A DNA stretch of 64,000 nt, taken from positions 70,160 to 134,159 of the forward strand of contig JBAWWL010000008.1 in NCBI GenBank assembly GCA_037146775.1. Direction: 5' to 3'. Numbering within the stretch: the stretch's first letter is position 1; each line of letters begins with the position of its first letter. Below, piece after piece: positions 35,883-61,429 of the stretch. The notes under the pieces are model-generated. The model ran no database searches and had not been told where the DNA came from. It was given only the letters and a program-made list of their open reading frames with translations. This DNA comes from Candidatus Omnitrophota bacterium. GTDB lineage: Bacteria; Omnitrophota; Gorgyraeia; Duberdicusellales; 4484-171. The translations under genes and the position numbers were made by a program.

Positions 35883-35905
35883 TACATAAGATATTTTAAA
35901 CAGTT

Positions 35906-37545: not shown

Positions 37546-37645
37546 GAGCCTTCCATTACCTATATTTTCATTGTATTATTAGCGGGTATTTTAAAAGAAG
37601 AAGAATATAGTTTTTTATCGTGACATTCTGCTTTGTGTAAAGTGT

Positions 37646-38515: not shown

Positions 38516-38528
38516 AGTGAGATAAGAT

Positions 38529-39269: not shown

Positions 39270-39272
39270 TCC

Positions 39273-46125: not shown

Positions 46126-46598
46126 AACGATTTTATTATTTTATCTTAATTGGGATGTTTGTATTAAGTTTTTCCGAAAATATTTACGCAAACAATCTTT
46201 GTGCCAGCTGGTATAGTCGCGAAAGTTTGATTAAAGAAGGGACTTGGAAGAACGGAAAAGAAAGGAGAATGGCAAATGGCAAAAAATTTAATGAGAACAA
46301 TCATACTTGCGCCACTAGGTTATATCCTATTGGGAGTATCCTGGTTATTACTAATATTGCAACGGGGGATAGATGTGTTGTTGAGGTTACTGATAGAATT
46401 GGGAGAAGGTTCGCTAAAAAAAGAATAGATTTAAGCAGAATGGCTTTTTCTTGTTTGGCCGATTTAGATACCGGCATTATCAAGGTTAAAGTCGAACCGA
46501 TAATAATAACCAAGCGGAAAAACGTTACTGCTTCCCGGGTAAGCGGAAAGCAGTACGTTCCGCCAAAGGTTAAGGATAAAAGATCAATAAAAAAATAA
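46122..46598 (+). CDS. RlpA-like double-psi beta-barrel (DPBB) protein, secreted
   Basis: CASWYS...CATRLYPIGSILVITNIATGDRCVVEVTDRIGRRFAKKRIDLSRMAF matches the RlpA/3D motif order. Confidence 0.6.
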   Translation: MKRFYYFILIGMFVLSFSENIYANNLCASWYSRESLIKEGTWKNGKERRMANGKKFNENNHTCATRLYPIGSILVITNIATGDRCVVEVTDRIGRRFAKKRIDLSRMAFSCLADLDTGIIKVKVEPIIITKRKNVTASRVSGKQYVPPKVKDKRSIKK

Positions 46599-46650: not shown

Positions 46651-47937
46651 GTGGTAGATATCAAATTATCTCAAATCTCATTAAGCGGAACTAATCCGCG
46701 TAAACGATTTAACGCCGAAATGTTCAAGGAGCTGGTTGATTCTGTACGTAAACACGGAATAATCGAGCCGTTAATTGTCCGGGAAAGAAAAAATATACCC
46801 AATCGCTTTGAGCTCGTATCCGGAGAGCGCCGCCTTAAGGCAGCTCAGGAGCTTAAGTTTGATGTAGTGCCGGCAATTAAAAAGGAATTAAACGATGTCG
46901 AGGTCCTTGAAATCCAGTTAATCGAGAACATCCAGCGCCAGGACCTTTCGCCGGTTGAAGAGGGAAGAGCGTTCAAGGCGCTCATGGCAGCATCTAAATG
47001 CACACAGGAAGACGTGGCGCAGAAGATCGGTAAAAGCCAGGGGTATGTAGCCGCCCGCGTAAGCCTTTTAGATCTACCGGAAGATTTTTTAAAATTACTT
47101 GAAGAAGATAAACTCCAAGCCGGGCATATAAAGTTCATGATGAATTTTAAGGCATCACCAAAAATATTAGACAACTTAAAGAAGAGATTAAAGGATCATT
47201 GGAAAAACGCAGATACTATTACCGTCAGAGAATTTCAAGATTTATGTTTAGATGTCACCTCAAGACAAACTAAACCGCTTTATAAAGAAAGCTATGGTGG
47301 CGATATGTGGCCGGTGTTTGATCTTAAGGTTTGCGAAAAGTGTGAACACAACAAAACCGTTGATCTTAAATGGGATAAAAACAAAAAACGTTGTTTCAAC
47401 CCGGAATGTTGGTCACAAAAACAAACAACATTTAAACGCGCCGAAGCCGAACGTGTCAGGGAAAAGGTAAAGTCCGGCAAGGTGGTAAAAGAAGCAGATT
47501 TACCCAAAAACCTACAAACTCTTGAAAATTGTAGGTTTGATAAGAAAACTTGCGCTAAATGTGAAAACCGGAAGATAGGAATTGTAAAAGATTGGAATAA
47601 TAAATCAGTAAAAAAAGAAATATGTCTCGATAAAGAATGTTACGCCCGGAAAGAAAAAGAAGCCCTGGAAGCGGCAGAAAATGCTAAGCAAGAAGCTTTT
47701 AAGAAGCAAGTAGAAAAATGTAAAGAAAAAGCCGCTAAAGGTGCTATGGATCGAGAGTTTGTTATTGAGCTTTTAGTTTCCAAGATGGGATGGGATAACC
47801 ATGAAGCGGTAACGCTTGCTTATGGTATCAAGCGCGAGATTTTGAATAATCACAAAAAAGCTATGGAATATTTCACAAGAAATACCAAGGTTAACGTAGA
47901 GGAGATACTGCGTTTCGTAACCTATTGGAAAGATTGA
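46651..47937 (+). CDS. ParB/Sulfiredoxin N-domain protein with C-terminal Cys-rich repeats
   Basis: GIIEPLIVRER...LVSGERRLKAAQEL ParB N-terminal motif; multiple CxxC pairs later. Confidence 0.7.
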   Translation: MVDIKLSQISLSGTNPRKRFNAEMFKELVDSVRKHGIIEPLIVRERKNIPNRFELVSGERRLKAAQELKFDVVPAIKKELNDVEVLEIQLIENIQRQDLSPVEEGRAFKALMAASKCTQEDVAQKIGKSQGYVAARVSLLDLPEDFLKLLEEDKLQAGHIKFMMNFKASPKILDNLKKRLKDHWKNADTITVREFQDLCLDVTSRQTKPLYKESYGGDMWPVFDLKVCEKCEHNKTVDLKWDKNKKRCFNPECWSQKQTTFKRAEAERVREKVKSGKVVKEADLPKNLQTLENCRFDKKTCAKCENRKIGIVKDWNNKSVKKEICLDKECYARKEKEALEAAENAKQEAFKKQVEKCKEKAAKGAMDREFVIELLVSKMGWDNHEAVTLAYGIKREILNNHKKAMEYFTRNTKVNVEEILRFVTYWKD

Positions 47938-48015: not shown

Positions 48016-48627
48016 ATGGGATCAGAAAGGTGGGCGATCTGTTGTCCCGGGCCATCGTTATCTAAATATAATTTTTCCAAAAGAATCCAAGTATACAACC
48101 CGGACTGCATCATAGCGGTAAACGGAGCAATCTGCGCTGACCTTGTTTTTGATTATTGGGCTTTAGGAGACATCGAAGTCTTTTCATCAGTATCCGCGAA
48201 GCTGGACTTACCGGGGATAGCTAAACGCACAATCCTATGGATACCTGATTTTTGGTTAAACCACATAAACAAATATACTGATCTTTCGCCAATATTTTAC
48301 AAATTCAGAAGAGAAACCTGGCATAACTTAACTTACGAAATGCATATTGGCATGGGATATCCTTGGAGAGAATACACGATGTTTGCGGCTATAGCCTTGG
48401 CAATAAAGAAAGAGGCCACATTTATTAAAATATATGGCGCTGACATGGATGGAAAGGGTTACTTCCAGCAAGGTTTTGAAAATGTCCGCACCAGGCACAA
48501 TCAGAAGCGCTGGGAAGACGAGCGTTTCTGGTTTAACGAGATAGTACACGTATGTAAGAAATATGGAATAGAAATTGTCCGCGACGAGGTTAAGAATGAA
48601 AGTATTGATAGTAGCGCCAAGGTATAA
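48016..48627 (+). CDS. phage hypothetical protein
   Basis: 203 aa, no recognisable motif. Confidence 0.4.
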   Translation: MGSERWAICCPGPSLSKYNFSKRIQVYNPDCIIAVNGAICADLVFDYWALGDIEVFSSVSAKLDLPGIAKRTILWIPDFWLNHINKYTDLSPIFYKFRRETWHNLTYEMHIGMGYPWREYTMFAAIALAIKKEATFIKIYGADMDGKGYFQQGFENVRTRHNQKRWEDERFWFNEIVHVCKKYGIEIVRDEVKNESIDSSAKV

Positions 48628-50092
48628 ACCTTTTGGCCAATTCTATGAGTTGCCGTTGGGCCTGGCGTATTTGTCAGCATATTTAAAGACAAAAGGTGTG
48701 CATGTTGATTTTTTAAATCTTAATCAGTGCCCTTTTGACGAGGTATTGATCAAGATGTTATCCGAAGCAGATATCGTTTGCACCGGGGGGCTTTCAGTGC
48801 ATTATCATCAAGTTAAAACTATTATCGATATGGCTAAATGCATCAATCCAGCTATAAAAACTATTGTCGGCGGCGGTTTGATAAGTGCAACCGCAGGCAT
48901 AGTGATGCGCGCTCTAAACGCTGACGTTGGGATCATAGGAGAAGGAGAAATAACATTATTTGAAGTCATAAAGGCCATAGAGGAAAAAAGAAAAATAAGC
49001 ACGATTCCAAACGTAATAGCCAATGAAGATGGCGTTTATGTTATTGATACTACTTCCTACCGGACAGAAATAGATAATATAGATACCCTGCCATTCCCGG
49101 ATTATGAAGGATTAGGCATAGAACAATATCTTGATAAACAATTATGCGGTGATGAACATTACCTTTATCCTTTTGATAACCCCCGCGGTATGCCTATCAT
49201 TTCCAGCCGGTCCTGCCCCTTCAACTGCACATTTTGTTTTCATCCTATCGGTCAAAAATACCGGCAAAGGTCGCTGGATAATTTATTCACTGAGATAGAT
49301 TATCTTGTAGAAAGATACCGGATTAATATTCTCTCTATACTTGATGAGCTTTTCTCTTTGGATCACGCGCGCATAAAAGAATTTTGCCGGCGTATCAAAA
49401 AATATAACCTTAGGTGGATGACGCAAATGCGTGTTGACAGCGTTACAGAAGAAATAATCGGCTTACTTAAAGAATCAGGCTGTTTTCAAATCAGCTTCGG
49501 CGTTGAAAGCGCAAGTAATAAGGTTTTAGAAAGCATGAATAAGAAAATCTCTATTGAACAAATAGGCCAGGCTCTTGAATGGTCCTATAACGCAGGGATA
49601 GGAATACAGGGAAACTTTATATTCGGGGATAAGGCCGAAACCCCGGCAACGGCAAAAGAAACACTGGATTGGTGGTTGGCGCATAAAAAATACGCGCTCA
49701 ATTTAACTTATATAATCCCTTACCCGGGAAGCGGGCTTTACAATTACGCAGTGATTAAGGGGATTATCAAGGATGAAACAAAATATCTTACAAATAATTG
49801 TCCTTTCGTAAAGATCACACCAAGCTTTCCGGAAGTTTCTTCTATGCTGGAATCATATAGAAACCAACACAATCACCTACCGGCAATAAACCAGGTATCT
49901 CAAAAGGTTGGATATGATCCAATCAGGGGCGAACTTTATCAGGTTACAGCCGTTTGCCCGCATTGCAAGAAACAGGAAACATATAAAAACTTATATTGGG
50001 GCAGTACCGGGATATCGTTTTTATCTGGGAGAGGTTACCGGATCGGCTGCCGGGATTGTAACCAGAGGTTTGATTTAACAAAGTTTAATTGA
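48596..50092 (+). CDS. B12-binding-domain radical SAM protein
   Basis: N-terminal B12-binding-like Rossmann fold then SRSCPFNCTFC (CxxxCxxC). Start set at MKVLIVAP. Confidence 0.7.
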   Translation: MKVLIVAPRYKPFGQFYELPLGLAYLSAYLKTKGVHVDFLNLNQCPFDEVLIKMLSEADIVCTGGLSVHYHQVKTIIDMAKCINPAIKTIVGGGLISATAGIVMRALNADVGIIGEGEITLFEVIKAIEEKRKISTIPNVIANEDGVYVIDTTSYRTEIDNIDTLPFPDYEGLGIEQYLDKQLCGDEHYLYPFDNPRGMPIISSRSCPFNCTFCFHPIGQKYRQRSLDNLFTEIDYLVERYRINILSILDELFSLDHARIKEFCRRIKKYNLRWMTQMRVDSVTEEIIGLLKESGCFQISFGVESASNKVLESMNKKISIEQIGQALEWSYNAGIGIQGNFIFGDKAETPATAKETLDWWLAHKKYALNLTYIIPYPGSGLYNYAVIKGIIKDETKYLTNNCPFVKITPSFPEVSSMLESYRNQHNHLPAINQVSQKVGYDPIRGELYQVTAVCPHCKKQETYKNLYWGSTGISFLSGRGYRIGCRDCNQRFDLTKFN

Positions 50093-50778
50093 TAATGAGA
50101 ATAGCAATAGCGATAGCAACGAGAGGAAACGATATCTATGCAAAGTTACTGCATTTTTGCTGTGAAGCTGTAAAGAAATATAATTGTGACATAGTTACTT
50201 CTGAAGCTGGTTTTTCTGCTGAACAAGCGCAGACAAATTTATTTCATTACATACTCAGCTGTGATTTTGATTATGTTCTTTTAATAGATAGCGATGTGGC
50301 GGTGCCCTTTGATACGCTGGATAAATTATTAGCCTGTAAAACCGACATTGTTAGCGCCCCGGTACTACATTATGATCCAATGACAAACGACATTCATTGG
50401 AATATATCTTTAGAAATGATTAACCCAACTGAATTTAAAAGATTATATGAGCGTAAAGATTCCGGGGTCGAAGAACTTATGTCATCATCATTTGCATGTC
50501 TTTTACTCAGCAAGAAAGTTTTTCAAATTTTTAAAGACGCCGGAGAAAGTTTTTTTACATGGTCGCCTTTGGTTGATGAAAGATGGAACAGGCGAAATTC
50601 GGACAACATTTTTTTCTTAAAAGCCAAAGCCTTGGGGTTACGATCGTTTGTTTGTTGGGAAATAAAAGGCGCTGTCCACAATAGAACAATTAAATTAACA
50701 GATCAGCTAATAACACACTTTTATGCGCATTGTCCGCAAAAATGTAAATCTGAAATAATAGAGATAAAAAAACCATAA
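50089..50778 (+). CDS. glycosyltransferase-like protein (putative, DSD motif)
   Basis: 229 aa; LLIDSDVAVPFD D-x-D-like motif in nucleotide-sugar-transferase-like context. Confidence 0.35.
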   Translation: MIMRIAIAIATRGNDIYAKLLHFCCEAVKKYNCDIVTSEAGFSAEQAQTNLFHYILSCDFDYVLLIDSDVAVPFDTLDKLLACKTDIVSAPVLHYDPMTNDIHWNISLEMINPTEFKRLYERKDSGVEELMSSSFACLLLSKKVFQIFKDAGESFFTWSPLVDERWNRRNSDNIFFLKAKALGLRSFVCWEIKGAVHNRTIKLTDQLITHFYAHCPQKCKSEIIEIKKP

Positions 50779-50784
50779 TTAGAT

Positions 50785-51498
50785 ATGAATAACGATACAA
50801 AATTATTAGTTATCTGCCCTAGCCGGATACGTCCGGTCCGGCTAAAAGAAATGCTTCAAAGCTTTGATGCCACGAAAAGCGAAGGTACAGATATCGTTGT
50901 TTATGTAGCTGATGATGATCCCACGATAGAAGAATACAAGTCTTTGTTGCAAGGTAGAAATCTTGTTATCGGGCGCCGCCGGCATCTTGTAGAGGTATTG
51001 AATTATATATCCTGCGAGCTTTACCCATGGCTGGCTTATTATGGCGAGATTAACGATGATCATATATATCGCACTCCTGGGTGGGACAAGGTGCTTATAA
51101 ACGCTTTAGAGGCACGTGGAGGAGGTTGGGGAATAGCTTGCGGAACTGATCATATAAATGATAACTGGTATAAGTTCAGACATCCAAGCGCTTGTGTAAT
51201 ATCCGGAAAGATGGTTAGAACACTTGGGTTTTTTGTTTTACCGCTTTTACAGCACATGTGGACCGATGTTTTTTTAAGGGATATTTCCGAAGGCATAGGA
51301 AGATTATACTTTTGTCCGGAAGTGGTAACAGAGCACATGCATATAAGTACCGGCAAAGCCAGAAACGATGCTAACTATAAGTGGGTATATTCACCGGAAC
51401 AAATGAAGTTTGGCCAAGAAAACTACGAAAAATGGAAACGGGAACATTATATACAAACCATCGATAAATTAAAAAAGGCCATAGAAAATGACCGTTGA
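50785..51498 (+). CDS. glycosyltransferase-like protein (putative GT2-like)
   Basis: LLVICPSRIRP...VVYVADDDP pattern. Confidence 0.35.
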   Translation: MNNDTKLLVICPSRIRPVRLKEMLQSFDATKSEGTDIVVYVADDDPTIEEYKSLLQGRNLVIGRRRHLVEVLNYISCELYPWLAYYGEINDDHIYRTPGWDKVLINALEARGGGWGIACGTDHINDNWYKFRHPSACVISGKMVRTLGFFVLPLLQHMWTDVFLRDISEGIGRLYFCPEVVTEHMHISTGKARNDANYKWVYSPEQMKFGQENYEKWKREHYIQTIDKLKKAIENDR

Positions 51499-52120
51499 CA
51501 TAGCTATACCTACTTATTGCAGGCCTCAAAAACTTTCTTGGCTTATTAAATCTATTCTTGTGAATGATTACCCGGGATATCGAATAATCATTATCCCTGA
51601 TTACGAGAGAAAACATGTATTCAGGTTGATCAATGAAGCATCTCAAAAGAGCGATGCAGATATATTTTTGGGTATATCCGATGATACAGAATTTGAACGT
51701 GACGTTATTATTTCGGCAGTTTCTTCTATGAAAGAACATTTTCCTGATACCGATGGAATTATCTATATGAATTGGTTAAATCTTCCCAATGTATGCAAGG
51801 GGGCTATCGCTTTTACCGGTAAAAAATTCCGTGAAAGGTTTCCTGATAAGTTTATATATTGTCCGGACTATATAAGTCTTTATGCTGATGATGAGCTTGG
51901 AAGGTATGCAGAGTCAATAAATAAGTTAGCTTTTTGTTCCGATACAGGATTGCATCATTACCATCCATCAGCTTATCCGGATCAGGTTGATATAACTCAT
52001 AAACTTGGAAGAGTAAATCAGCCGCACGACTTGGATGTTAGATCGTTAAGGAAAGCCAAGGGTTATCTTTGGGGAAAAGATTTCAATTTGGTAACAACAG
52101 ATTTAGAAAGAATTTTATAG
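51488..52120 (+). CDS. glycosyltransferase family 2 protein
   Basis: IAIPTYCRPQKL (IPTYNR-type) N-terminal motif and DxD region. Confidence 0.6.
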   Translation: MTVDIAIPTYCRPQKLSWLIKSILVNDYPGYRIIIIPDYERKHVFRLINEASQKSDADIFLGISDDTEFERDVIISAVSSMKEHFPDTDGIIYMNWLNLPNVCKGAIAFTGKKFRERFPDKFIYCPDYISLYADDELGRYAESINKLAFCSDTGLHHYHPSAYPDQVDITHKLGRVNQPHDLDVRSLRKAKGYLWGKDFNLVTTDLERIL

Positions 52121-52137
52121 AATCAAGAGTTTTCGAG

Positions 52138-53298
52138 ATGAATAAATTTATCGTAGTCAGTTACTATACAAAAAACACAAGTTATCAAAATAGCGTAGAG
52201 AGGTTAAGGCAGTCTTTGGATAAACTTAATATTAATTATCACATCCAGCCAATCGACAACCTGGGCAGCTGGGATAAAAACACCCACTATAAAGCAAGCT
52301 TTATTTTAGAAATGCTAGATAAGTATCCGGACAAGAACATAGTTTTTATAGACGCCGATGCGATAGTACATAGTTACCCTGATCTCTTTGACGTCCTGGA
52401 TGTTGATTTTGCTGTTCATTACTTCCGCGGCCGGCAACTGGCTTCCGGTACGCTGTTCTTTAAGAATAACACTATATCCAGGGAGCTATTAAAAGCATGG
52501 ATAGAGAGAAACAATCAAGACAAAACAAACCTGGATCAGCAAAATCTACAGAATATCATTGAAGAGGTTTGGAAATACAAGATAACAATTTTCGATTTAC
52601 CACCGGAATATTGCACTATCTTTGATATGAGAGAACGAATCCCACGCCCAATTATTGAGCATTTTCAGCTTTCCCGGGAAGGCCGCATAGAAGTTAATTT
52701 ATATCATAGGGAACACGAGAAATACTCAAAACAATGGAAAGATGGATATCAACGTTCTGCCTGCGCTGTGCCTTTAGGCTATTATATTGCAGCAAAAGCA
52801 CAGAAACATTGGAAGCTGCTTGACATCGGCTGTGGAGACGGAACAACTATTAATATTTTAAATAGATTAGGATTCTGCTGCTACGGTACGGATATAACCT
52901 TGAATGGATTAATAGGCAAGCCAATTTATACTTATAAAAACACACCAATTCCAGAAAATCTGATTACAGAGGCTCCTATATGGAATATTCCATGCAAAGA
53001 CGATGAATTTGATTTTACTTTTTCAACGGATATGCTTGAGCATTTACCACCGGAACTTATAAACAAATCAATCAAAGAAATATACCGTATATCAAAATTA
53101 AAGACATATCATTGCATTGCAAATTTCAGCCATATTTTATCTAATCAAGAAATGCACTTGACTATCCGCCCGTTCGAATGGTGGCAAAAGCATTTTGAAG
53201 CGCTTAACTTTAAAAAGATAGATACCAGGATAGATGATCGCAAGGATTTTATGCTTAGCCCACTGACACGGATAGGGGGTAATGAAAATGGCATTTAA
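52138..53298 (+). CDS. nucleotide-sugar-transferase-like domain fused to class I SAM methyltransferase
   Basis: C-terminal LLDIGCGDGTTINIL motif I; N-terminal GT8/DUF-like transferase fold features (IVFIDADAIV). Confidence 0.5.
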   Translation: MNKFIVVSYYTKNTSYQNSVERLRQSLDKLNINYHIQPIDNLGSWDKNTHYKASFILEMLDKYPDKNIVFIDADAIVHSYPDLFDVLDVDFAVHYFRGRQLASGTLFFKNNTISRELLKAWIERNNQDKTNLDQQNLQNIIEEVWKYKITIFDLPPEYCTIFDMRERIPRPIIEHFQLSREGRIEVNLYHREHEKYSKQWKDGYQRSACAVPLGYYIAAKAQKHWKLLDIGCGDGTTINILNRLGFCCYGTDITLNGLIGKPIYTYKNTPIPENLITEAPIWNIPCKDDEFDFTFSTDMLEHLPPELINKSIKEIYRISKLKTYHCIANFSHILSNQEMHLTIRPFEWWQKHFEALNFKKIDTRIDDRKDFMLSPLTRIGGNENGI

Positions 53299-53473
53299 TT
53301 TAAGATGTATGATCTGCGGCAATGAGCATAAAGCTAGAAAGGATAAATTCCCTGTAGTTTATGCTATCCAAGATAAAGATGCTAAGACCGGAGCAGTCAT
53401 CGAAAAAATATTAGGTCATGTCTGTAAAAAATGCGTTCGGAAGGCACGTAAGCACGGAGGAAGGATACAATGA
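53282..53473 (+). CDS. small zinc-ribbon protein
   Basis: CMICGNEH...CKKCVRK. Confidence 0.35.
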   Translation: MKMAFNLRCMICGNEHKARKDKFPVVYAIQDKDAKTGAVIEKILGHVCKKCVRKARKHGGRIQ

Positions 53474-53670
53474 TGTGGCTGCTTACGGCTTTGTCGATTG
53501 TTGGGGTAGTGCTTAATATACAAAAGAACAGGTCCTGTTTTAAGATCTGGGTTTTTACTAATGCATCCTGGTGCGTGTATGATTTTCTTATAAAAGCTTA
53601 CGCCCAAAGTTTTTTATTTCTTGTGTACACGGCTTTAGCGGTATGGGGTTTCGTTAAATGGAAAAAGTAA
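53470..53670 (+). CDS. small two-TM membrane protein
   Basis: 66 aa. Confidence 0.35.
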   Translation: MMWLLTALSIVGVVLNIQKNRSCFKIWVFTNASWCVYDFLIKAYAQSFLFLVYTALAVWGFVKWKK

Positions 53671-53691
53671 TAATCAAAAAGGAGGGAGAAG

Positions 53692-54135
53692 ATGAAGCAG
53701 GTTACTCGAAAACAAAAGACAAGTTCGCCAAGGTTTCTTGACAACGAGAATGGCACAATCACCGATACGAAGACCGGGCTTATCTGGGTTAAAAATCCGC
53801 ATACTGATTTGCCGGAAGAGTTTAAGAATTACATGACCTGGAAGCAAGCTGTAGACGCTTGTAAGAAGCTTAACTATGCCGGCAATAAAGACTGGCGGTT
53901 GCCTACGGTAGAGGAGTTAAGAGAGCTTGTAGATTACGCACGCGGCAGTAAGTCCGAAGAGCCAGCAATAGATACATCAGTCTTTCCGGATACTAAATGC
54001 AACTGGTACTGGACATCTACTTCCTGTGCCTGGGATCCGAGCAGCGCTTGGGTAGTGGATTTCTATGGCGGCGACGTGGGCAACGGCGGTAAGGGCAACA
54101 GTAACTATGTACGTCCGGTTCGTTCCAGCCAGTGA
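53692..54135 (+). CDS. DGR target protein, DUF1566 (C-type-lectin-fold) family, variable region at C-terminus
   Basis: WRLPTVEELRELV and NWYWTSTS motifs of DUF1566. The last 106 nt (54027-54132) are a mutated copy of the TR. Confidence 0.75.
   Translation: MKQVTRKQKTSSPRFLDNENGTITDTKTGLIWVKNPHTDLPEEFKNYMTWKQAVDACKKLNYAGNKDWRLPTVEELRELVDYARGSKSEEPAIDTSVFPDTKCNWYWTSTSCAWDPSSAWVVDFYGGDVGNGGKGNSNYVRPVRSSQ
54027..54132 (+). repeat. DGR variable region (VR)
   Basis: 106-nt match to TR 54657-54762; 15 differences, all at TR adenine positions. Confidence 0.85.
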
Positions 54136-54169
54136 GTTGAAGTTTTGACTTTTTTGACGAGGTTAAAAA

Positions 54170-54544
54170 ATGAGTTTATATGAACAACTTCCGGTTTATA
54201 AATCAGCCTTAGATTTAGCGGTGTATTTTGAAAAGATAGTTAGTAATTTTGAGCGTTCTCACAAGTTCACGATTGGAGCTGATTTAAAAAACCTCTCTCG
54301 CCGGATTCTTGTTTTGGTTGCTAAAGCCAACACTAAGCAATCAAGAAAAGAATGTCTTGTCGAGGTATTAGATAAACTGGAAGAGCTTAAAATTATCATT
54401 CATCTTTGCAAGGAGATAAAAGCATTCCGTTCTTTAAACAGTTTTGAATTTGCAACAAAGTCAGTAATCGAAGTATCGAAACAATGCGAAGGGTGGTTAA
54501 GAAGCCAGAATTTCTCAGGTGTAAAACTTGAGGAAGCGAGCTAA
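54170..54544 (+). CDS. avd: Avd-like accessory variability determinant (four-helix-bundle protein)
   Basis: 124 aa, all-helical, basic; matches the four-helix-bundle/Avd family pattern; positioned between target and TR as in BPP-1. Confidence 0.65.
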   Translation: MSLYEQLPVYKSALDLAVYFEKIVSNFERSHKFTIGADLKNLSRRILVLVAKANTKQSRKECLVEVLDKLEELKIIIHLCKEIKAFRSLNSFEFATKSVIEVSKQCEGWLRSQNFSGVKLEEAS

Positions 54545-54656
54545 AGAAGTCACTGGGCGCTTATTCCACCAGGATTGGTATAAGAATGCAGGAAGTAGTA
54601 CTGAAGGGATCTGCTTTCGGAGGCCTTAAAACGGCAAGAAGTGAATAAGCAAAAGT

Positions 54657-54762
54657 TGCCTGGAATCCGAGCAGCGCTTGGATAGTGAATTTCAATAACG
54701 GCAACGTGAACAACAACAATAAGGACAACAATAACTATGTACGTCCGGTTCGTTCCAGCCAG
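54657..54762 (+). other. DGR template region (TR)
   Basis: Non-coding copy of the target gene 3' end, rich in AAC/AAT triplets; its 3' end overlaps the RT start. Confidence 0.85.
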
Positions 54763-55834
54763 CGGCTCAAAAAGTGGAATATTCTCTTACAGGAATATCT
54801 ACCGGAGTTATCTTGATTGCCGGCGCAAAAAACGCAATACTTATAATGCGCTAAAGTTTGAGATTAACGCCGAAGAGAATATTCTTAAGTTAGAGCAATC
54901 ATTAAAGAACAAAACTTACCACCCTTCGCGTTCTATTCTTTTTGCCGCCAAGAAACCTAAATTACGAGAAATATTCGCCGCTGATTTTAAAGATAGGGTA
55001 GTTCACCATATCCTGGTTAATGAACTTGAAAAGATATGGGAGCCTATCTTTATTTACGATTCCTACGCCTGCCGCGATGGGAAAGGAACACACAGGGCAG
55101 TAGCTAGATTGCAGAAATTTTTGCGTAGCGCGACAACAAACGGTAAAGTCCGGGCATATTATTTGCAGCTGGATATTAAAGACTTTTTTACAAGCATAGA
55201 CAAGAAAACACTCTTTTCTTTGATCAGCCGGAAAGTATCGAATCCGGACGTTCTCTGGCTTGTGGATGTGATCCTTTTCTGGGATTGCACTAAGTCATAT
55301 ACACCTAAAGGGCCTAAACAAATATTGCTTAATATCCCACCTAACAAAAGCCTTTTTGATAAAGATAATTTACGCGGTTTGCCTATAGGTAATCTTACCA
55401 GTCAATTCTTTGCAAATATTTACTTGAACACCCTAGATCAATTCGTGAAGCATAATCTCAAAGCAAAATATTATCTGCGTTACGTAGATGACTTTGTATT
55501 GTTAAGTAGGGATAAAGACGAGCTCCTGCGATGGAAAGAAGAAATCAAAAACTTCCTGGCTAATACCCTAAGTCTACAACTACACCCTAAACGTCAAAAG
55601 CTTCAACCGGTATCCAATGGCATAGATTTCTTGGGTTATATTACTCGGCACAACTATATCTTGGTTAGGCGTAGGGTAGTCAATAATCTTAAGGCGCTAA
55701 TTGAAGCTTTTACAAAGTCAAAAGTTAAAGATTTCAAAAAGTTTAACGATTCAATAGCTTCATACCTAGGACATTTCAAGTGGGCAAATACTTTTAGGTT
55801 GAAGAATAAACTAGGGTTATCTTATGCAAATTAG
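54737..55834 (+). CDS. DGR reverse transcriptase (bRT-like)
   Basis: Motif-by-motif similarity to Bordetella phage bRT: DFKDRVVHHIL, DSYACRDGKGTHRAV, LQLDIKDFFTSID, LPIGNLTSQFFANIY, YLRYVDDFVLL (YxDD), IDFLGYI. Confidence 0.85.
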   Translation: MYVRFVPASGSKSGIFSYRNIYRSYLDCRRKKRNTYNALKFEINAEENILKLEQSLKNKTYHPSRSILFAAKKPKLREIFAADFKDRVVHHILVNELEKIWEPIFIYDSYACRDGKGTHRAVARLQKFLRSATTNGKVRAYYLQLDIKDFFTSIDKKTLFSLISRKVSNPDVLWLVDVILFWDCTKSYTPKGPKQILLNIPPNKSLFDKDNLRGLPIGNLTSQFFANIYLNTLDQFVKHNLKAKYYLRYVDDFVLLSRDKDELLRWKEEIKNFLANTLSLQLHPKRQKLQPVSNGIDFLGYITRHNYILVRRRVVNNLKALIEAFTKSKVKDFKKFNDSIASYLGHFKWANTFRLKNKLGLSYAN

Positions 55835-56204
55835 TTTTTTTATAGATGTATCGCCATCATCTTTAAACACCACGCAGTGCCAACACTGGACAGCGCGATA
55901 CAAAGATCGTAATAGATGGAGAGAATTAATATTCGAACACTGGATGTTAAACAAACGGTACGTATTTACTAAGCCGGTAAAGGTGTTATATATTTTAAGT
56001 TTTCCAGATAGACGCCAGCGCGATAAAGATAACTATATCGGCGGCATGAAAAATATCACTGACGCATTAAAGAAAACATTTATAACTCGGGACGACGCAA
56101 GTTGGCTTAGGAACGTCGATGTAGCCTTCATAAAAGGCCCTCAAGGATTAAGAGTTCTCATTGACGAGGTAACCGAAGCGGAAAACAGAGGAAATGTAAG
56201 TTAA
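55824..56204 (+). CDS. rusA: RusA-like Holliday junction resolvase
   Basis: 126 aa; PDRRQRDKDNYIGGMKNITDAL matches the RusA catalytic D-x-D-N region. Confidence 0.55.
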   Translation: MQISFFIDVSPSSLNTTQCQHWTARYKDRNRWRELIFEHWMLNKRYVFTKPVKVLYILSFPDRRQRDKDNYIGGMKNITDALKKTFITRDDASWLRNVDVAFIKGPQGLRVLIDEVTEAENRGNVS

Positions 56205-56205
56205 A

Positions 56206-57273
56206 ATGACTAAGTATCTTTTTGACGGACACAAATTAATTTGGCACATGGATAGAGTTCATAAGCATTACAAGCTTGGTAAACGTATCCCACCTATTCA
56301 TATAGATATTGGAGTTACAAAGCTATGCAATGCACGGTGTGTTTATTGCTACGGTATCTTTCAAAAGTTAAGTGGTGATATTATCCCTAAGTCTACGCTA
56401 ATGAGGCTCTTTAAGGACGCTCCCACTTGTGGGGTTAAGTCTTTAGCTATTATTGGCGACGGCGATCCTACATTAAACTCCGGAATCTATGATGCAATAA
56501 CCGTTGGCAAGGATAGCGGGCTTGACATAGCTTTTGGAACTAACGGTATTCTGCTTGATGATGATAAGTTGTTATGCCTTTTATCTTCCTGCGCGTGGTT
56601 AAGGTTTAATCTTTCGGCAGTAGATAAGCAAAGATATTTAGATATTCACGGCGTAGACAAGTGGGGGCAAGTTAAAGGGAATATCATAAGAGCGGCAGAG
56701 CTTAAAAGTAGGTACGGCCTTAAATGCACGATTGGTTTGCAAATGGTGTTGATACCTGATTGCGTTGAGCAAGTCATACCGGAAGCGCAATTTGCTTTAG
56801 ACACCGGAGTTGACTATTTCGTTATTAAGCAATTCAGCGACCCGCAATGTGATGAAATGTCAAGGTTTTCTCTGACTTGGTATGATAACCCCGAGGTGTT
56901 AGATATCCTTAAACGCGCCGAGGCAATGTCAACGGATAAGACAGCGATTATTCCAAAATGGAACACAATATCATCTAAAGGTGTGAGGCCCTACGACCAT
57001 TGCGTTGACTGCCCGCTTATTTTCCAGATTAGCGGAAACGGAAAAGCCTACCCTTGCGGCTATCTGTTTGGCGATGATAGGTATTGCTATGGCGATTTAA
57101 ATAAACAATCGCTGGGCGAGATTTTATACAGCGAGCATTATTGGGGAGTAATTAAATATATGCGCGAGAGGTTTGATGTGCATAAGGATTGCGCGGGGTG
57201 CTGTCGTCATGACCACAGTAACAAGTTTATTTGGGGATACTTACATCCACCGGTACACTTAAATTTCATTTAG
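56206..57273 (+). CDS. radical SAM protein with C-terminal Cys-rich (SPASM/twitch-like) region
   Basis: CNARCVYC CxxxCxxC; C-terminal CVDC...PCGY...CAGCC. Confidence 0.7.
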   Translation: MTKYLFDGHKLIWHMDRVHKHYKLGKRIPPIHIDIGVTKLCNARCVYCYGIFQKLSGDIIPKSTLMRLFKDAPTCGVKSLAIIGDGDPTLNSGIYDAITVGKDSGLDIAFGTNGILLDDDKLLCLLSSCAWLRFNLSAVDKQRYLDIHGVDKWGQVKGNIIRAAELKSRYGLKCTIGLQMVLIPDCVEQVIPEAQFALDTGVDYFVIKQFSDPQCDEMSRFSLTWYDNPEVLDILKRAEAMSTDKTAIIPKWNTISSKGVRPYDHCVDCPLIFQISGNGKAYPCGYLFGDDRYCYGDLNKQSLGEILYSEHYWGVIKYMRERFDVHKDCAGCCRHDHSNKFIWGYLHPPVHLNFI

Positions 57274-57280
57274 GAGGCTT

Positions 57281-57664
57281 ATGAAACATAAAACAAATAT
57301 TGATATGAGCTTAGGTGATGTGATTGACAGGTTGACTATTCTTTCAAGAAAGATATTTTTCGGCGCCGAGGGGGCATATAAAGAGCATACTTATCTTACC
57401 GAGGGTATAGATAGGCTTGGGATTAAGCTATCCGGCGCTCTCCTTGCCGTAATTATCCGCATAAACCAGATGAATATAGAAATATGGAACTTGGAAAATT
57501 CTATCCGTAACGACACCGAAGACAAAATGGACAATGCCGAGGTTGGCAGACGCGCCAAGCTGATACGCGATTACAACAAGAAGCGGATCGAATACAAAAA
57601 CGAAATTAACCGTCTTACTGAAATGGGGTTTCGTGAGTTCAAAACAAAACACAGAAGCCAATGA
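57281..57664 (+). CDS. phage hypothetical protein
   Basis: 127 aa helical. Confidence 0.4.
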   Translation: MKHKTNIDMSLGDVIDRLTILSRKIFFGAEGAYKEHTYLTEGIDRLGIKLSGALLAVIIRINQMNIEIWNLENSIRNDTEDKMDNAEVGRRAKLIRDYNKKRIEYKNEINRLTEMGFREFKTKHRSQ

Positions 57665-58233
57665 TAAAACAAGAACTTATTGATTTTGAAGACGAAATAG
57701 CCGAGTTGTTCAAGGCTAAAAAAATAAAATGCCCTATTCACTTAAGCGGGGGTAATGAAGACGAACTTATAAGTATTTTTAAGAACATATCGCCAAAGGA
57801 TTATGTATTTTCTACTCACAGGAACCATTACCATTATCTACTTCATACCGGGGCAGCGGAAAGATTGAAGAAACAGATACTATCTGGTGACAGTATGCAC
57901 ACCTGCGACCCAGAGCATAATTTCTATTCTTCATCTATTGTGTCTGGGTGCGTGGCAATTGCCTGTGGGGTGGCGTTGGCGTTGAAGATGAAGAAAAGCA
58001 AACAAAAGGTTTGGTGCTTTGTCGGTGATGCCGGTACTGATGAGGGTTGGTTTTGGGAGGCATTAAGGTATTCGGCAGGCTTGCCGATAACTTTTGTGGT
58101 AGAAGATAACAATAGATCAGTTTTTGCCACCAACAAGCAACGTTGGGGGGGTATGAAGAAAGTTAATATTATTGCTTATAAATATAAATGCGGTTGGCCG
58201 CACGTCGGTTGTGGTGAATGGGTAACATTTTGA
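57661..58233 (+). CDS. TPP-dependent enzyme, E1-alpha/transketolase-N-like subunit
   Basis: GDAGTDEGWFWEAL resembles the TPP-binding GDG...E...N motif region. Confidence 0.5.
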   Translation: MIKQELIDFEDEIAELFKAKKIKCPIHLSGGNEDELISIFKNISPKDYVFSTHRNHYHYLLHTGAAERLKKQILSGDSMHTCDPEHNFYSSSIVSGCVAIACGVALALKMKKSKQKVWCFVGDAGTDEGWFWEALRYSAGLPITFVVEDNNRSVFATNKQRWGGMKKVNIIAYKYKCGWPHVGCGEWVTF

Positions 58234-58733
58234 AATATAAAGATTATCTTCACAATACTATGTTGCGGTTAGCCAAAGACTATAGGGTTCGTTTCTTAGG
58301 GTACAACACAAGATATGGGCATAAATTTAACGGAACGCTGGAAGGGTGCGAGGGATCTTGCTTGGAAATGCCAGTAGCGGAGAACCTTATTTTAGGCGTA
58401 GCCATGGGTATGGCTCTTGAGGGCTACAGGCTGATTGTTTGTATAGAACGAATGGACTTTCTCTGGGCTTGCGCGGATGCTCTGATTAACCACTTAGATA
58501 AAACTATAGAGTTGGGTTGGCCTGCGTTAGACATAATCATCCGGACGTGCGTGGGTGGGATTAGCCCGCTGGATCCAGGTTGCCAGCATAAGGGCGATTA
58601 TTATGATGTTTTCAAGGGATTGATGAAAGAAGTTTTTGTTACTACCTCTTGGAGTAAAGCGTTAAAACATAAAGGCGCGGTCATGGTTGTTGAGTGGAGA
58701 AATGATTATGAAAAAGATTATACTCCCCGATAG
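58218..58733 (+). CDS. TPP-dependent enzyme, E1-beta/transketolase pyrimidine-binding-like subunit
   Basis: Overlaps and follows the alpha-like subunit; Pyr-domain-like fold motifs (EMPVAENLILGVAMGMALEG). Confidence 0.45.
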   Translation: MGNILKYKDYLHNTMLRLAKDYRVRFLGYNTRYGHKFNGTLEGCEGSCLEMPVAENLILGVAMGMALEGYRLIVCIERMDFLWACADALINHLDKTIELGWPALDIIIRTCVGGISPLDPGCQHKGDYYDVFKGLMKEVFVTTSWSKALKHKGAVMVVEWRNDYEKDYTPR

Positions 58734-59532
58734 TTATAGCTATATCGGTGCTTTCTTAACTCTTAGGTGCGGATTGGGTTGTTCTTATTGCCTTAATCAT
58801 TATGACGTTTCGGGAAAGTTTGACGAGATGAGTACCGAGGATTGGATTACCGGACTTTCTCGGATAGAAACAAGGGAAGATTTTCCTATAACTCTGCAGG
58901 GCGGCGAGCCTACGGTTCATAAAGGATTTTATGATATAGCCAGTAGTCTTCATTCATTGAATCAATGCATGGATTTGCTTACCAACGGAATGTTCGATGT
59001 AAAAGAATTTCAGCAACGGTTAAGGGCTACAACTTTTTTCAGAGAAGCCAAGTATGCCTCTATAAGATTCTCTTTCCACGAATCAACGGTTGGTATTGCC
59101 TTGGCTATGAAAGTTTGGACGTTAAAAAATAACGGCTATCAGGTGGGAATATGGGGGTTGGGTGATACGGAAAGAAATAAAATCATGGCTGTGTTATGCA
59201 AACAACTTAACATTGATTTCAGGTTAAAAGAATTTTTGTCTGAGGACCTTGGAACATATAAATATCCCGAAGCCCATACTAAGAAATTCAAGAAGACGGT
59301 GATGTGCAAGCCAAGAGAGTTTCTTGTCGGGCCTTCCGGGCATATCTTCCGTTGTCATGCTGACCTATACGCTAACCGTAACCCTATAGCGCATATTCTT
59401 GATGAGAGTATTGAGTTTAAAGATTCATTCCCCTGTGATAATTACGGGCATTGTAACCCTTGTGATGTGAAGTTAAAGACCAATAGATTCCAGGAGTTTG
59501 GATATTGTTCTGTGTTAATCAAAGAACTATAA
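58708..59532 (+). CDS. radical SAM protein
   Basis: CGLGCSYC CxxxCxxC near the N-terminus; C-terminal CHAD...C...CNPC cluster. Confidence 0.65.
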   Translation: MKKIILPDSYSYIGAFLTLRCGLGCSYCLNHYDVSGKFDEMSTEDWITGLSRIETREDFPITLQGGEPTVHKGFYDIASSLHSLNQCMDLLTNGMFDVKEFQQRLRATTFFREAKYASIRFSFHESTVGIALAMKVWTLKNNGYQVGIWGLGDTERNKIMAVLCKQLNIDFRLKEFLSEDLGTYKYPEAHTKKFKKTVMCKPREFLVGPSGHIFRCHADLYANRNPIAHILDESIEFKDSFPCDNYGHCNPCDVKLKTNRFQEFGYCSVLIKEL

Positions 59533-60130: not shown

Positions 60131-61429
60131 ATGATTAACATTAATATAAAACCGGAAATAAAGGAAATCTATTTAAAGAATATTTTTCCTAATCCTGCCA
60201 ATCCGCGTGATATCACCGAAGAAGCCATGGCGGGACTACAAAAAAGCCTTGAGCAATTTGGTTACGTGGATTTACTTATTGTCAATAAACGTAATATGCA
60301 ACTTATTGCTGGCCACCAACGTTTAAAAATATTCAAAGAAAATGGTATCAAGCGCGTTCCTTGTATTTTGGTTGATATTAACGATATGCGTCAGCAGACA
60401 ATGGCTATAACTTTGAATAATCAGCAAATTGTAGGTTTTTGGACAGCGGCATTAATTCCCATTTTAGAAAAAATACGTCAAGAAATACCAGACGATTATA
60501 TTAACTTAAGGATAGAAGCTCTCCGCGAAGAAGTTGAAGAACTTGAGAAAGAAAGTTTAGGTACTGGAAAAACATTACCAGATGATATACCGCCTATTCC
60601 TAAGAAGGCTGTCACTAAGGCAGGGGATCTATGGATATTAGGACAGCATCGGATTTTGTGCGGGAGTAGCACTAATAAAGATCACGTTGCGCATTTGATG
60701 GATGGACGTAAGGCGCGATTGTTGGCTACAGATCCACCATATCTGGTTGATTATACTGGTGACGATAGACCCAAATCCGGAAAAGACTGGTCTGATGTAT
60801 ATCACGAAATCGATATCCCCGATGCGTATATATTTTATAAAGACTTCCTGTCGATTGCGCTTAAACATATTAATAATAATTCAGCAATTTATATGTGGCA
60901 TGCATCTAAACGCATTGACGTAATCCAAAAAGTATTTATTGAATTAAAAATTTTAATCCATCAGATAATTATTTGGGTTAAACCTTGTGCAATATTGACA
61001 TTCTCAATATATCCATGGAGACATGAGCCATGCATATTTGGCTGGTTGCAAGGCAATAAGCCAAAAATTAAAGCTACAGCAAACAAAACCGGAACAGTAT
61101 GGACAATAGGATTAATGCGCACAGGAGATCCAGCAAGCCCGGAATATTATACTGACATCTGGGAAATTGATTGGGAGGGAAAGAAGAGAAGCCCGGGTAA
61201 AGATCATCCCACAATCAAGCCTACCGAAGTCTTTGCAATTCCTATGCGCGTTCATACAAACCCGGGAGATATCTGCTATGAGCCTTTTAGTGGGTCCGGA
61301 TCGCAAATAATAGCAGCTGAACGATTAAACCGTAGATGCTTTGCTATGGAGATAGAACCGATCTTTGTAGATGTGGCGGTAAAGCGCTGGGAAGAGTTCA
61401 CAGGTAAAAAAGCTAAATTAGAAAAATAA
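60131..61429 (+). CDS. ParB-like nuclease domain / DNA methyltransferase fusion (N6-adenine or N4-cytosine)
   Basis: N-terminal ParB-N motif (LIAGHQRLKIF); MTase motifs LLATDPPYL (DPPY) and CYEPFSGSGSQIIAAE (FxGxG). Confidence 0.8.
   Translation: MININIKPEIKEIYLKNIFPNPANPRDITEEAMAGLQKSLEQFGYVDLLIVNKRNMQLIAGHQRLKIFKENGIKRVPCILVDINDMRQQTMAITLNNQQIVGFWTAALIPILEKIRQEIPDDYINLRIEALREEVEELEKESLGTGKTLPDDIPPIPKKAVTKAGDLWILGQHRILCGSSTNKDHVAHLMDGRKARLLATDPPYLVDYTGDDRPKSGKDWSDVYHEIDIPDAYIFYKDFLSIALKHINNNSAIYMWHASKRIDVIQKVFIELKILIHQIIIWVKPCAILTFSIYPWRHEPCIFGWLQGNKPKIKATANKTGTVWTIGLMRTGDPASPEYYTDIWEIDWEGKKRSPGKDHPTIKPTEVFAIPMRVHTNPGDICYEPFSGSGSQIIAAERLNRRCFAMEIEPIFVDVAVKRWEEFTGKKAKLEK

Follow-up and report, generated by a model that had tools for sequence, protein, structure and literature searches.

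A candidate heptose-type sugar-tailoring and glycosylation island, built of two mobile cassettes around a diversity-generating retroelement, in a Candidatus Omnitrophota prophage

Introduction

Sugar-metabolism and glycosylation islands of phages are known from the lipopolysaccharide (LPS) clusters of cyanophages, the glycosyltransferase (GT) cassettes of actinophages and the prophage-encoded TarP. Those of T4-like cyanophages were recorded in 2010 as 'LPS genes', their role being left undescribed (Sullivan et al. 2010, PMC3037559). Of related enzymology are the two-subunit E1-like pairs AviB1/AviB2 and Pau11/Pau12, proposed to place an acetyl branch from pyruvate at C-4 of nucleoside diphosphate (NDP)-keto-sugars on the way to eurekanate and paulomycose, with a ketoreductase acting next, and YerE, the corresponding enzyme for yersiniose (PMC4753412). 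In the present study, we analyzed a stretch of 64,000 nucleotides (the window) from a Candidatus Omnitrophota metagenome-assembled genome (MAG; GCA_037146775.1, contig JBAWWL010000008.1, positions 70,160 to 134,159), in which a prophage carries an island combining three radical S-adenosylmethionine (rSAM) enzymes with an E1-type thiamine pyrophosphate (TPP) enzyme, together with a diversity-generating retroelement (DGR).

This combination of three rSAM proteins and an E1-type TPP enzyme is undescribed, and literature searches (DUF4254; heptose and radical SAM; phage radical SAM and transketolase) returned no account of the module or of the bacterial cluster to which we relate it below. On balance, and with a little more than even confidence, we regard the region as a mosaic glycosylation island that couples heptose-type nucleotide-sugar tailoring to glycosyl transfer, its two mobile cassettes flanking the DGR within the lytic operon of a temperate Omnitrophota phage.

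Results

Two separable cassettes

The initial annotation, made from the letters of the DNA, had described a single 11-kb enzyme cluster surrounding the DGR, with a cobalamin (B12)-dependent rSAM enzyme, GT-like genes including a GT-methyltransferase fusion, a split TPP enzyme and two further rSAM proteins. All of these components are present, co-directional and placed between ParB and the terminase genes; the extent needed correction, as the island starts one gene earlier, with o203, and a RusA resolvase also lies inside it (Table 1, in window coordinates). Every island gene is on the + strand, where 18 tightly packed or overlapping open reading frames (ORFs) fill the interval from 48.0 to 59.8 kb. 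The notion of one cluster did not survive comparison with other genomes: the region consists of two separable cassettes, whose halves occur independently, cassette 2 being absent from the relative L056 and cassette 1 from the type A loci described below. Cassette 1 (48016-53298) holds o203, the B12-rSAM enzyme, the GT-A transferase GT237, two further, putative GT-A-type transferases (o229 and GT210) and the GT-methyltransferase fusion. Cassette 2 (56206-59532) opens with an rSAM/SPASM enzyme and a DUF4254-like protein, followed by an E1-type TPP enzyme, miniature and split in two, and by a short rSAM enzyme.

L056, whose proteins are 60-82% identical to those of the window where genes are shared, has cassette 1, and the whole rSAM/DUF4254/TPP/rSAM block is missing. 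Its genes run ParB, o203, B12-rSAM, o229, Glyco_transf_29, CTP_transf_3, GT237, GT210, methyltransferase and two small ORFs, and then RusA, Lcl_C, Lcl_C, Avd, reverse transcriptase (RT), o84, ParB-methyltransferase and the terminase small subunit (TerS), so that, relative to the window, it has gained a sialyltransferase-family (GT29-like) gene and a CMP-sugar synthetase gene (CTP_transf_3) in the same cassette as o203. In the more distant L060 and L061, o203 heads the slot with other cargo behind it, namely a GT2-Methyltransf_24 gene, another rSAM gene and an uncharacterized protein; o203 is thus the invariant first gene of cassette 1 in the window and in all three relatives.

Cassette 2 has a far wider distribution. 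Viral contigs queried with the TPP alpha subunit and the rSAM/SPASM protein yielded 48 loci, 44 after removal of duplicates, in most of which cassette 2 is syntenic; the gene counts across the 44 were 44 for rSAM, 39 for TPP, 20 for DUF4254-like, 18 for GT237 and 6 for B12-rSAM, and none of the 44 has a homologue of o203, o229 or GT210. In type A loci (e.g., L014, L016 and L018-L021) cassette 2 stands alone, adjoining PDDEXK, AAA_24, ParB-methylase and PolA genes, without a recognizable GT and with a B12-rSAM gene in L030/L031 only. Type B loci have cassette 2, an uncharacterized gene and GT237 between PrimPol/VapE and an SNF2 helicase, and in type C loci GT2-like, CTP_transf_like, LicD-methyltransferase and GT237 genes accompany cassette 2. 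Type D (L006 and L023) is a contiguous series without a DGR: TPP alpha/beta, the short rSAM (rSAM281), rSAM/SPASM (in L006), B12-rSAM, GT237, a GT2-like gene and GT237 again, the B12-rSAM copy that adjoins cassette 2 in L006 being 49% identical to that of the window. The B12-rSAM and GT237 genes can accordingly work with cassette 2, as in type D, and can do without it, as in L056.

In L001, L004, L007 and L044, cassette 2 sits beside portal and MuF genes. With positions so varied, its location is uninformative and the module behaves as mobile cargo. The 11.6-kb region gave no megablast match among INPHARED phages, and tblastn of the rSAM/SPASM protein against 50,697 GenBank phage records gave a single match at 26% identity; the five-gene module is essentially absent from sequenced phage isolates and recurs in dozens of contigs of uncultured phages.

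Nucleotide-sugar neighborhoods of cassette 2

From 185,579 species genomes, 47 loci were recovered. The chromosome of Methylobacter tundripaludum SV96 (NZ_JH109152.1, about 1,358,700-1,366,500; L068) may serve as an example, having a cluster with homologues of E1 alpha/beta and of rSAM/SPASM in the order rSAM/SPASM, NAD-dependent epimerase/dehydratase, SIS (GmhA-like), CTP_transf_like and PfkB (HldE-like), full-length E1 alpha, E1 beta with Transketolase_C, a second rSAM/SPASM (42% identical to that of the window) and two GTs. The same set occurs in Polaromonas, Polynucleobacter, Nitrospira, Gallionellaceae, Zetaproteobacteria, Omnitrophota and archaeal MAGs, and the cluster is also found in Myxococcota; besides SV96, about 30 genome loci have it. 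SIS or HldE genes accompany 32 of the 47 loci and E1 alpha/beta genes 28, often with B12-rSAM genes and GTs nearby.

Phage loci point in the same direction. A fused TPP alpha/beta homologue (47-48% identity) occurs in cyanophages S-SM2 (SSM2_198) and P-TIM68 (gp190), surrounded by genes for phosphoheptose isomerase, heptose kinase/adenylyltransferase, nucleotide-sugar epimerases, a zinc-dependent alcohol dehydrogenase (Zn-ADH) and GTs. The 133-kb viral contig L008 has, along with the TPP pair, three Glyco_trans_1_2 genes, DUF4254, a B12-rSAM gene with an intein, an aldo-keto reductase (AKR), a DegT aminotransferase, a GT237-like GT and a GHMP kinase, and a 735-kb megaphage combines genes for TPP beta, rSAM/SPASM and TPP alpha, not far from one for an NDP-sugar epimerase. 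A ketoreductase adjoins the TPP gene repeatedly, as a short-chain dehydrogenase/reductase (SDR) in L004/L007, the AKR in L008 and the Zn-ADH in the cyanophages. In a Pfam census of 129 proteins neighboring the module in viral loci, from which the 25 most frequent of 76 families were listed, the leaders were Epimerase (6), GDP_Man_Dehyd (5), RmlD (5), DegT (3), LicD (3) and CTP_transf_3 (2), with GT1, PfkB and methyltransferases; in Streptomyces phages, moreover, a GT237 homologue is paired with a heptose-1-phosphate adenylyltransferase-like gene.

Judged from gene neighborhoods, the TPP/rSAM pair would belong to nucleotide-sugar metabolism, most often of the heptose type. The sugar-pathway content that had been read from the window is therefore borne out by TPP homologues in nucleotide-sugar clusters of both phages and bacteria, and the idea of a two-carbon branch is strengthened as well, the enzyme being of the two-subunit E1 type that is proposed to install such branches on sugars (AviB1/AviB2, PMC4753412).

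Enzymes of cassette 2

Profile annotation bore out much of the initial annotation, with scores above the Pfam gathering cut-off for the three rSAM proteins, E1_dh, Transket_pyr, Methyltransf_11 and the DGR parts, and a CxxxCxxC motif is present in all three rSAM proteins. The rSAM/SPASM protein has the CxxxCxxC core (PF04055, 4e-11, 43.8 bits; CNARCVYC at residue 41) and a C-terminal SPASM domain (PF13186, 2e-6, 28.3 bits, cut-off 21.5), and reaches no equivalog cut-off. Identity with the second rSAM/SPASM protein (rSAMsp2) encoded in the heptose-type clusters of bacteria is 41-47%. A large protein collection yielded 668 homologues at E<=1e-10, and the best 120 of the 668 are 54-70% identical and all metagenomic; by this measure the five-gene module is strongly conserved. 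A sequence search of the PDB with it returned nothing.

The TPP enzyme is of the transketolase-like kind, with the pyrophosphate-binding (PP) domain and TPP motif GDA-x25-NN (GDAGTDEG...VVEDNN) on alpha (E1_dh 5e-20, 72 bits, cut-off 22) and the pyrimidine-binding (Pyr) domain on beta (Transket_pyr 1e-6, 28.7 bits, cut-off 27); each ORF corresponds to one half of PHROG 34187 (5e-56 and 5e-23). Its subunits have 190 and 171 residues and no Transketolase_C domain, and the PDH_E1_alph_y score of 87 bits (cut-off 394) is far from the equivalog level; the bacterial homologues are full-length E1 alpha/beta with Transketolase_C.

The small helical protein encoded between the rSAM/SPASM and TPP genes matches DUF4254 below threshold and stands beside rSAM/TPP genes in 20-28 loci; L022 and L024 have a GT9-like gene at this position instead. 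DUF4254 has been linked to the heptosyltransferase RfaF in Flavobacteriia (PMC9425974). The short rSAM enzyme (CGLGCSYC at residue 28), with a cysteine-rich C-terminus (CDNYGHCNPC), is syntenic in 40 loci at 40-60% identity.

Enzymes of cassette 1

The B12-rSAM protein is of class B, with an N-terminal B12-binding domain (PF02310, 3e-16, 59.7 bits, cut-off 32.1) ahead of an rSAM core (PF04055, 3e-19, 70.2 bits, cut-off 29.5) bearing CPFNCTFC at residue 214. It reaches no curated cut-off of the characterized subfamilies (PhpK, GenK/KedN5, AprD4, HpnJ, BchE and others), its best NCBIfam score being 159.6 bits for the PhpK family (cut-off 600), with 74 for AprD4 (cut-off 500). Its best PDB match is the sugar-acting AprD4 (2.6e-18). 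A phosphonate pathway, suggested by the PhpK match and a possible TPP decarboxylase, was considered and rejected: there is no PEP mutase, the scores are far under the cut-off, and the TPP domain order is PP-Pyr (E1/transketolase type), not Pyr-PP. In L008 (IMGVR_UViG_3300037882_003154, 4736-7867), the homologue is enlarged to 1043 residues by an intein, which separates the B12-binding domain from the rSAM core and includes a homing-endonuclease domain of the LAGLIDADG type.

All of the GT-like calls fell below the Pfam thresholds, and other evidence speaks for them (PHROG and an AlphaFold2 (AF2) fold for GT237, a family scan for o229 and hhalign for GT210), weakly so for the N-terminus of the fusion. 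The firmest case is GT237, with a Rossmann-like GT-A fold and an acidic DxD-type motif (D91 and D92, invariant in the family). Its AF2 model, built with 26 homologues, has a predicted local distance difference test (pLDDT) value of 95.8 and, by Foldseek, matches AvpGT, WrtF, SpsA and TarP at 1e-10 to 1e-7 with probability 1.0, hyaluronan synthase being also among the best solved matches; a PDB sequence search, family profiles included, gave noise only. GT237 is the transferase found most often with cassette 2. GT210 is probably a distant paralogue (hhalign family against family, E 1.4e-4 over 152 columns, including the acidic DD motif) with a Pfam GT2 match of 8e-4 (19.8 bits, cut-off 23.3) and 68% identity in L056. 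For o229 (73% identical in L056), the family has 72 cluster representatives at E<=1e-10, and a Pfam scan of 50 members identified Anp1 in 21, GT2 in 7 and Glyco_tranf_2_3 in 2; its PDB profile search gave weak matches to GT25 and STIV A197, and kinship with GT237 was rejected at an hhalign probability of 5%.

In the fusion, the C-terminal half is a class I SAM methyltransferase (Methyltransf_11 1e-9, residues 251-343), and the same architecture occurs in L061 and in pas34 of Actinoplanes phage phiAsp2 (L059, 5992-7782). The latter, in which a methyltransferase is joined to a GT domain like GT237 and whose gene lies among GTs beyond the tail genes, carries the RefSeq product name 'DNA methyltransferase' in conflict with its original record note, 'putative O-methyltransferase'. 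The PHROG 2675 label 'DNA methyltransferase' derives from pas34, and we rejected it as a clue.

For o203, no Pfam, PHROG or NCBIfam match was obtained, and a PDB sequence search gave nothing. Its AF2 model (pLDDT 83) matched, by Foldseek against the PDB, ST8SiaIII (6e-4), CstII (1e-3) and MptE of M. jannaschii (2e-3; the DUF115 kinase fold) at the top, with ST6GALNAC2 also among the matches, and against BFVD it matched MptE-like and GT29 viral proteins. The motif CPGPSL is almost invariant across the o203 homologues, one of 12 of which matches Pfam MptE-like, weakly (0.017).

Of the two small ORFs that follow, both are conserved in L056, and the 66-residue one, which aligns with only the final 63 positions of the PnuC/NMN_transporter profile, recurs in L023 and L060 (65-73 residues, same cassette context); conserved in size and context, it is a real mini-membrane protein and not a gene remnant. 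An NAD-salvage role, to which this ORF and the CTP_transf_like and Nudix pair of L014 had pointed, was set aside, the ORF being a conserved mini-protein and the L014 pair not being conserved with the module.

Diversity-generating retroelement

The DGR reported inside the enzyme region is genuine: it has an RT, an Avd, a target of C-type-lectin fold (Lcl_C) and a template repeat (TR) and variable repeat (VR) forming a 106-nt repeat in which every mismatch falls at a TR adenine, with the VR at the 3' end of the Lcl_C gene. Homologues of RT, Avd and Lcl_C occur together with the cassettes in close relatives of the prophage (L056/57, L061 and L063) and nowhere among the roughly 45 other viral-contig and phage loci. 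Within the lineage, too, the order varies: it is RusA-Lcl_C-Avd-RT in the relatives, with RusA upstream of the DGR in L056 and L061, against Lcl_C-Avd-RT-RusA-cassette 2 in the window. These observations do not support the suggestion of a functional link between a diversified lectin and glycan synthesis; because it is confined to that lineage, the association amounts to lineage synteny. Common descent of a genome slot with variable content explains the adjacency better than functional coupling does. For the DGR field this is a caution that the enzymes adjoining this retroelement are cargo and not parts of it.

In a Deltaproteobacteria MAG (JAUWWP010000003.1, 880-4810; L063), two Lcl_C genes and an Avd gene (71% identical to that of the window) lie directly upstream of a cassette 2 relative, with no intact RT detected at this locus, which may be a decayed DGR.

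Prophage setting

GT237 and o203 are 100% identical to proteins of a Candidatus Omnitrophota MAG, encoded on a 153.8-kb contig. The prophage is integrated and the island is part of its lytic operon, given the bacterial genes at 24000-40100 (among them, from their translations, genes for a histidine kinase, a response regulator and also an ABC transporter), the integrase and repressor, and the continuation of the same phage in another assembly with GpA terminase and a lambda-type portal. Integrase and repressor, as identified from translations, mark the left end of the prophage in the Omnitrophota MAG, and the window is not all phage. Promoter and terminator scans over 44.8-62.3 kb gave counts equal to shuffled expectation (45 against 50 and 13 against 14, respectively) and therefore no information on operon boundaries.

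Two neighbors of the island deserve mention in their own right. A ParB N-terminal domain fused to an N6/N4 DNA methyltransferase, directly upstream of TerS, is kept in the prophage lineage, and numerous cassette 2 loci without relation to it have the fusion as well. The other neighbor, at 46122-46598, is flanked by the replication initiator and ParB and encodes a small protein whose translation has a hydrophobic N-terminus like a signal sequence; it is conserved in L025, L060 and L061, and homologues in related prophages have a DPBB_1 (RlpA-like) domain, this interval being an unusual location for a domain of the cell-wall-binding type.

Table 1. Features of the prophage left end and the island, in window coordinates
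Feature	Position	Strand	Evidence
Tyrosine integrase	41310-42305	-	Tyrosine-recombinase C-terminal motif, read from translation
CI/LexA-type repressor	42679-43317	-	Read from translation
ParB (upstream flank)	46651-47937		
o203, putative sialyltransferase/MptE-like (DUF115) fold protein	48016-48627	+	AF2/Foldseek, motif CPGPSL
Cobalamin-dependent (class B) rSAM enzyme	ORF from TTG 48575, likely ATG 48596, to 50092	+	Pfam
o229, GT-A-type GT-like protein (Anp1/GT2-like family)	50089-50778	+	Family Pfam scan
GT237, GT-A fold GT	50785-51498	+	PHROG 14945 'glycosyltransferase' 3e-36; AF2
GT210, probable distant GT-A paralogue of GT237	51488-52120	+	hhalign
GT-like N-terminal domain fused to class I SAM methyltransferase	52069-53298, likely ATG 52141	+	Pfam
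Two small conserved ORFs: 63-aa Cys-rich protein; 66-aa PnuC-C-terminus-like membrane protein (53470-53670)	53282-53670	+	NMN_transporter 2e-7
DGR	53692-55834	+	
DGR target, Lcl_C	53692-54135	+	Lcl_C 7e-37
DGR VR	54027-54132	+	
DGR Avd	54170-54544	+	bAvd 4e-12
DGR TR	54657-54762	+	
DGR RT	54737-55834	+	RVT_1 3e-22
RusA-like Holliday junction resolvase (outside the pathway)	55824-56204	+	PHROG 34, 3e-11
Cassette 2 gene 1, rSAM/SPASM enzyme	56206-57273	+	Pfam
Cassette 2 gene 2, small helical DUF4254-like protein	57281-57664	+	Pfam DUF4254 E 1.7e-4, sub-threshold
Cassette 2 gene 3, TPP enzyme alpha (PP)	57661-58233	+	Pfam, PHROG
Cassette 2 gene 4, TPP enzyme beta (Pyr)	58218-58733	+	Pfam, PHROG
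Cassette 2 gene 5, short rSAM enzyme (rSAM281), Cys-rich C-terminus	58687-59532, likely start 58702-58708	+	Radical_SAM 4e-7
ParB-N6/N4 DNA methylase (downstream flank)	60131-61429		PHROG 498, 1e-98
TerS	61606-62232		

Discussion

From the gene content, folds, cofactor motifs, modularity and sugar-gene neighborhoods of the island, we infer a substrate, an order of steps, a product and an acceptor. Cassette 2 would be the phage's reduced form of a pathway for heptose-type nucleotide sugars that is widespread in bacteria. As the window has no GmhA, HldE or other sugar-activation gene, the host must supply the nucleotide sugar, which would be a nucleotide-heptose. The rSAM enzymes may catalyze an oxygen-independent oxidation, dehydration or rearrangement that creates or processes a keto intermediate, and the TPP enzyme may take a two-carbon unit, acetyl or hydroxyethyl, from pyruvate or another 2-oxoacid and place it on the keto-sugar nucleotide. 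The B12-rSAM enzyme would contribute a radical C-methylation or a related radical step such as dehydration, and the methyltransferase of the fusion an O- or N-methyl group, after which three or four GT-A enzymes and o203 would transfer the sugars; o203 may use a CMP-activated sugar, to which the CTP_transf_3 and Glyco_transf_29 genes in the L056 cassette point indirectly.

Several points weigh against this glycosylation scheme. No island enzyme reaches an equivalog cut-off, so that all statements on substrates rest on association, and the window has no gene for sugar activation or priming (nucleotidyltransferase, kinase, isomerase or dehydratase). In type A loci cassette 2 is found among replication genes without a recognizable GT, a placement with which a free metabolite, or a function directed at nucleotides or DNA, agrees no less well. 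Enzymes of the rSAM/SPASM and B12-rSAM kinds are also typical peptide maturases. The fold match of o203 is moderate (template modeling score near 0.53, E near 1e-3), support for the fusion's GT domain is weak (Nucleotid_trans E 4e-4, residues 88-185, 20.9 bits, cut-off 22), and no feature of the island identifies the acceptor.

That acceptor is most likely a cytoplasmically accessible protein or glycan, because the island belongs to a lytic operon, encodes neither a flippase nor other membrane components and is found again in phages that seem to be lytic; among the island ORFs there is no Pfam family of flippases, bactoprenol-linked GTs or polymerases/ligases, and the 66-residue PnuC-like protein is the sole membrane ORF. 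Virion proteins are our first choice, by a slight and tentative lean; a precursor of the host envelope comes second as a possible but doubtful acceptor, and DNA would be an improbable one. Should the target be the envelope, the phage would alter, at the cytoplasmic face, the LPS core or another glycan containing heptose or 3-deoxy-D-manno-octulosonic acid (Kdo), with lysogenic conversion or superinfection exclusion in the manner of TarP as the outcome and virions left undecorated. Such remodeling suits a temperate element with integrase and repressor (as the relative L061 also is), the bacterial heptose clusters whose GTs presumably build surface glycans, the RfaF link of DUF4254 (PMC9425974) with its GT9-like substitutes, the 'LPS' annotation of the cyanophage clusters and the presence of TarP among the fold matches of GT237. 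We nevertheless hold it to be rather unlikely, since the island is embedded in a + strand lytic operon between replication and packaging genes, unlike a moron with an orientation of its own close to att, and comes with no Wzx, Wzy, GtrA-type or further membrane component. Many phages with cassette 2, moreover, appear to be lytic (they encode a PolA, primase or SNF2 helicase themselves), and in L001, L004, L007 and L044 the cassette adjoins the portal and MuF genes mentioned above.

A role in DNA hypermodification, in which the cassettes would build a modified sugar or side chain and attach it to phage DNA bases for evasion of restriction, had been considered in the initial annotation and is poorly favored by the comparison. 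Its appeal lies in location, between ParB and the ParB-N6/N4 methylase/TerS pair here and, for loci of types A and B, amid replication genes, in the lack of a recognizable GT in type A, and in the occurrence of radical SAM enzymes in the known thymidine and 7-deazaguanine hypermodification pathways. However, neither the cluster nor the visible early region has a thymidylate-synthase-like hydroxymethylase, DpdA/TGT, 5-HMUDK, aGPT-Pplase or TET/JBP. No such hallmark gene appeared in Pfam, PHROG and NCBIfam scans of the enzyme ORFs over 48.0-62.2 kb (the DGR ORFs being scanned with Pfam only and the structural half of the prophage lying outside the window), nor among the 25 listed families of the neighbor census. 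The bacterial homologues, for their part, are in chromosomal sugar clusters, and the one 'DNA methyltransferase' label goes back to pas34, annotated as an O-methyltransferase among GTs. Equally improbable in our estimate is that no glycan is made at all, cassette 2 producing a diffusible small molecule or modifying a peptide in the way of pathways for cofactors or for ribosomally made peptides with post-translational modifications (RiPPs), with the adjoining GTs as unrelated cargo. The rSAM/SPASM and B12-rSAM proteins do match RiPP maturases, MoaA, PqqE or QueE at sub-threshold scores, and cassette 2 can stand alone in type A loci and be separated from cassette 1; against this, no conserved precursor-peptide candidate was found, E1-type TPP enzymes are, to our knowledge, not part of known RiPP systems, and the co-occurrence with nucleotide-sugar enzymes is strong and repeated in phages, bacteria and the megaphage.

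Going further than the glycosylation island itself, we put forward as a speculative possibility that cassette 2 and its chromosomal relatives represent an undescribed oxygen-independent conversion that starts from a nucleotide-heptose and ends in a higher sugar, C-branched or extended in its chain (C8-C9) and possibly C-methylated as well, captured in miniaturized form by phages across lineages. If so, two rSAM enzymes and an E1-type TPP carboligase would effect the conversion and supply a novel glycan for virions or hosts, and the captors would range from siphovirus-like genomes of about 40 kb to the 735-kb megaphage, with the cassette as a mobile auxiliary module. The tie to an uncharacterized heptose-associated cluster in cultivable bacteria such as SV96 offers a tractable route to new anaerobic radical/TPP sugar chemistry, and it raises the question of which glycans the phages of anaerobes place on their own virions or on their hosts.

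Comparison with known systems

DNA hypermodification systems (T-even glucosylation, thymidine hypermodification and 7-deazaguanine) resemble the island in lying near replication genes and, in some cases, in having radical SAM enzymes, but none of their defining genes is present in it. The cassettes of actinobacteriophages (pas33-35 of Actinoplanes phage phiAsp2; the Streptomyces BE cluster, e.g., EGole gp35-37) have GT237 homologues at 25-32% identity and share the GT/O-methyltransferase fusion and flanking GTs. They have, in addition, a small CTP_transf_like nucleotidyltransferase, and that of phiAsp2 directly follows the tail genes; unlike the window, they have no radical SAM, TPP or sialyltransferase-fold genes, and their hosts are Gram-positive. 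The cyanophage 'LPS'/heptose clusters (PMC3037559) are likewise phage-borne and contain the TPP alpha/beta homologue, in fused form, but the TPP gene is the only one in common: they have no radical SAM, DUF4254 or B12 enzyme, and they encode their own sugar activation, whereas the window does not.

At the level of single enzymes, the class B radical SAM enzymes that act on sugars (the diol dehydratase AprD4 and the GenK-type C-methyltransferases) share the B12-binding domain and rSAM core of the window protein, whose NCBIfam scores lie far under every equivalog cut-off and are compatible with methylation or dehydration. AviB1/AviB2 and Pau11/Pau12 are, like the phage enzyme, two-subunit and pyruvate dehydrogenase (PDH)-E1-like, and their adjacency to a reductase is mirrored in L004/L007, L008 and the cyanophages. 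The window enzyme differs in being about half their size (190 + 171 residues), in having no Transketolase_C domain and in having radical SAM enzymes, not a ketoreductase, as partners. In the chromosomal cluster exemplified by SV96, the E1 alpha/beta and rSAM/SPASM genes are both homologous to those of the window (30-47% identity) and adjacent, but it has full-length enzymes together with heptose-activation genes, whereas the phage version is miniaturized, has no activation genes, and adds to the shared core a DUF4254-like protein and a short rSAM enzyme.

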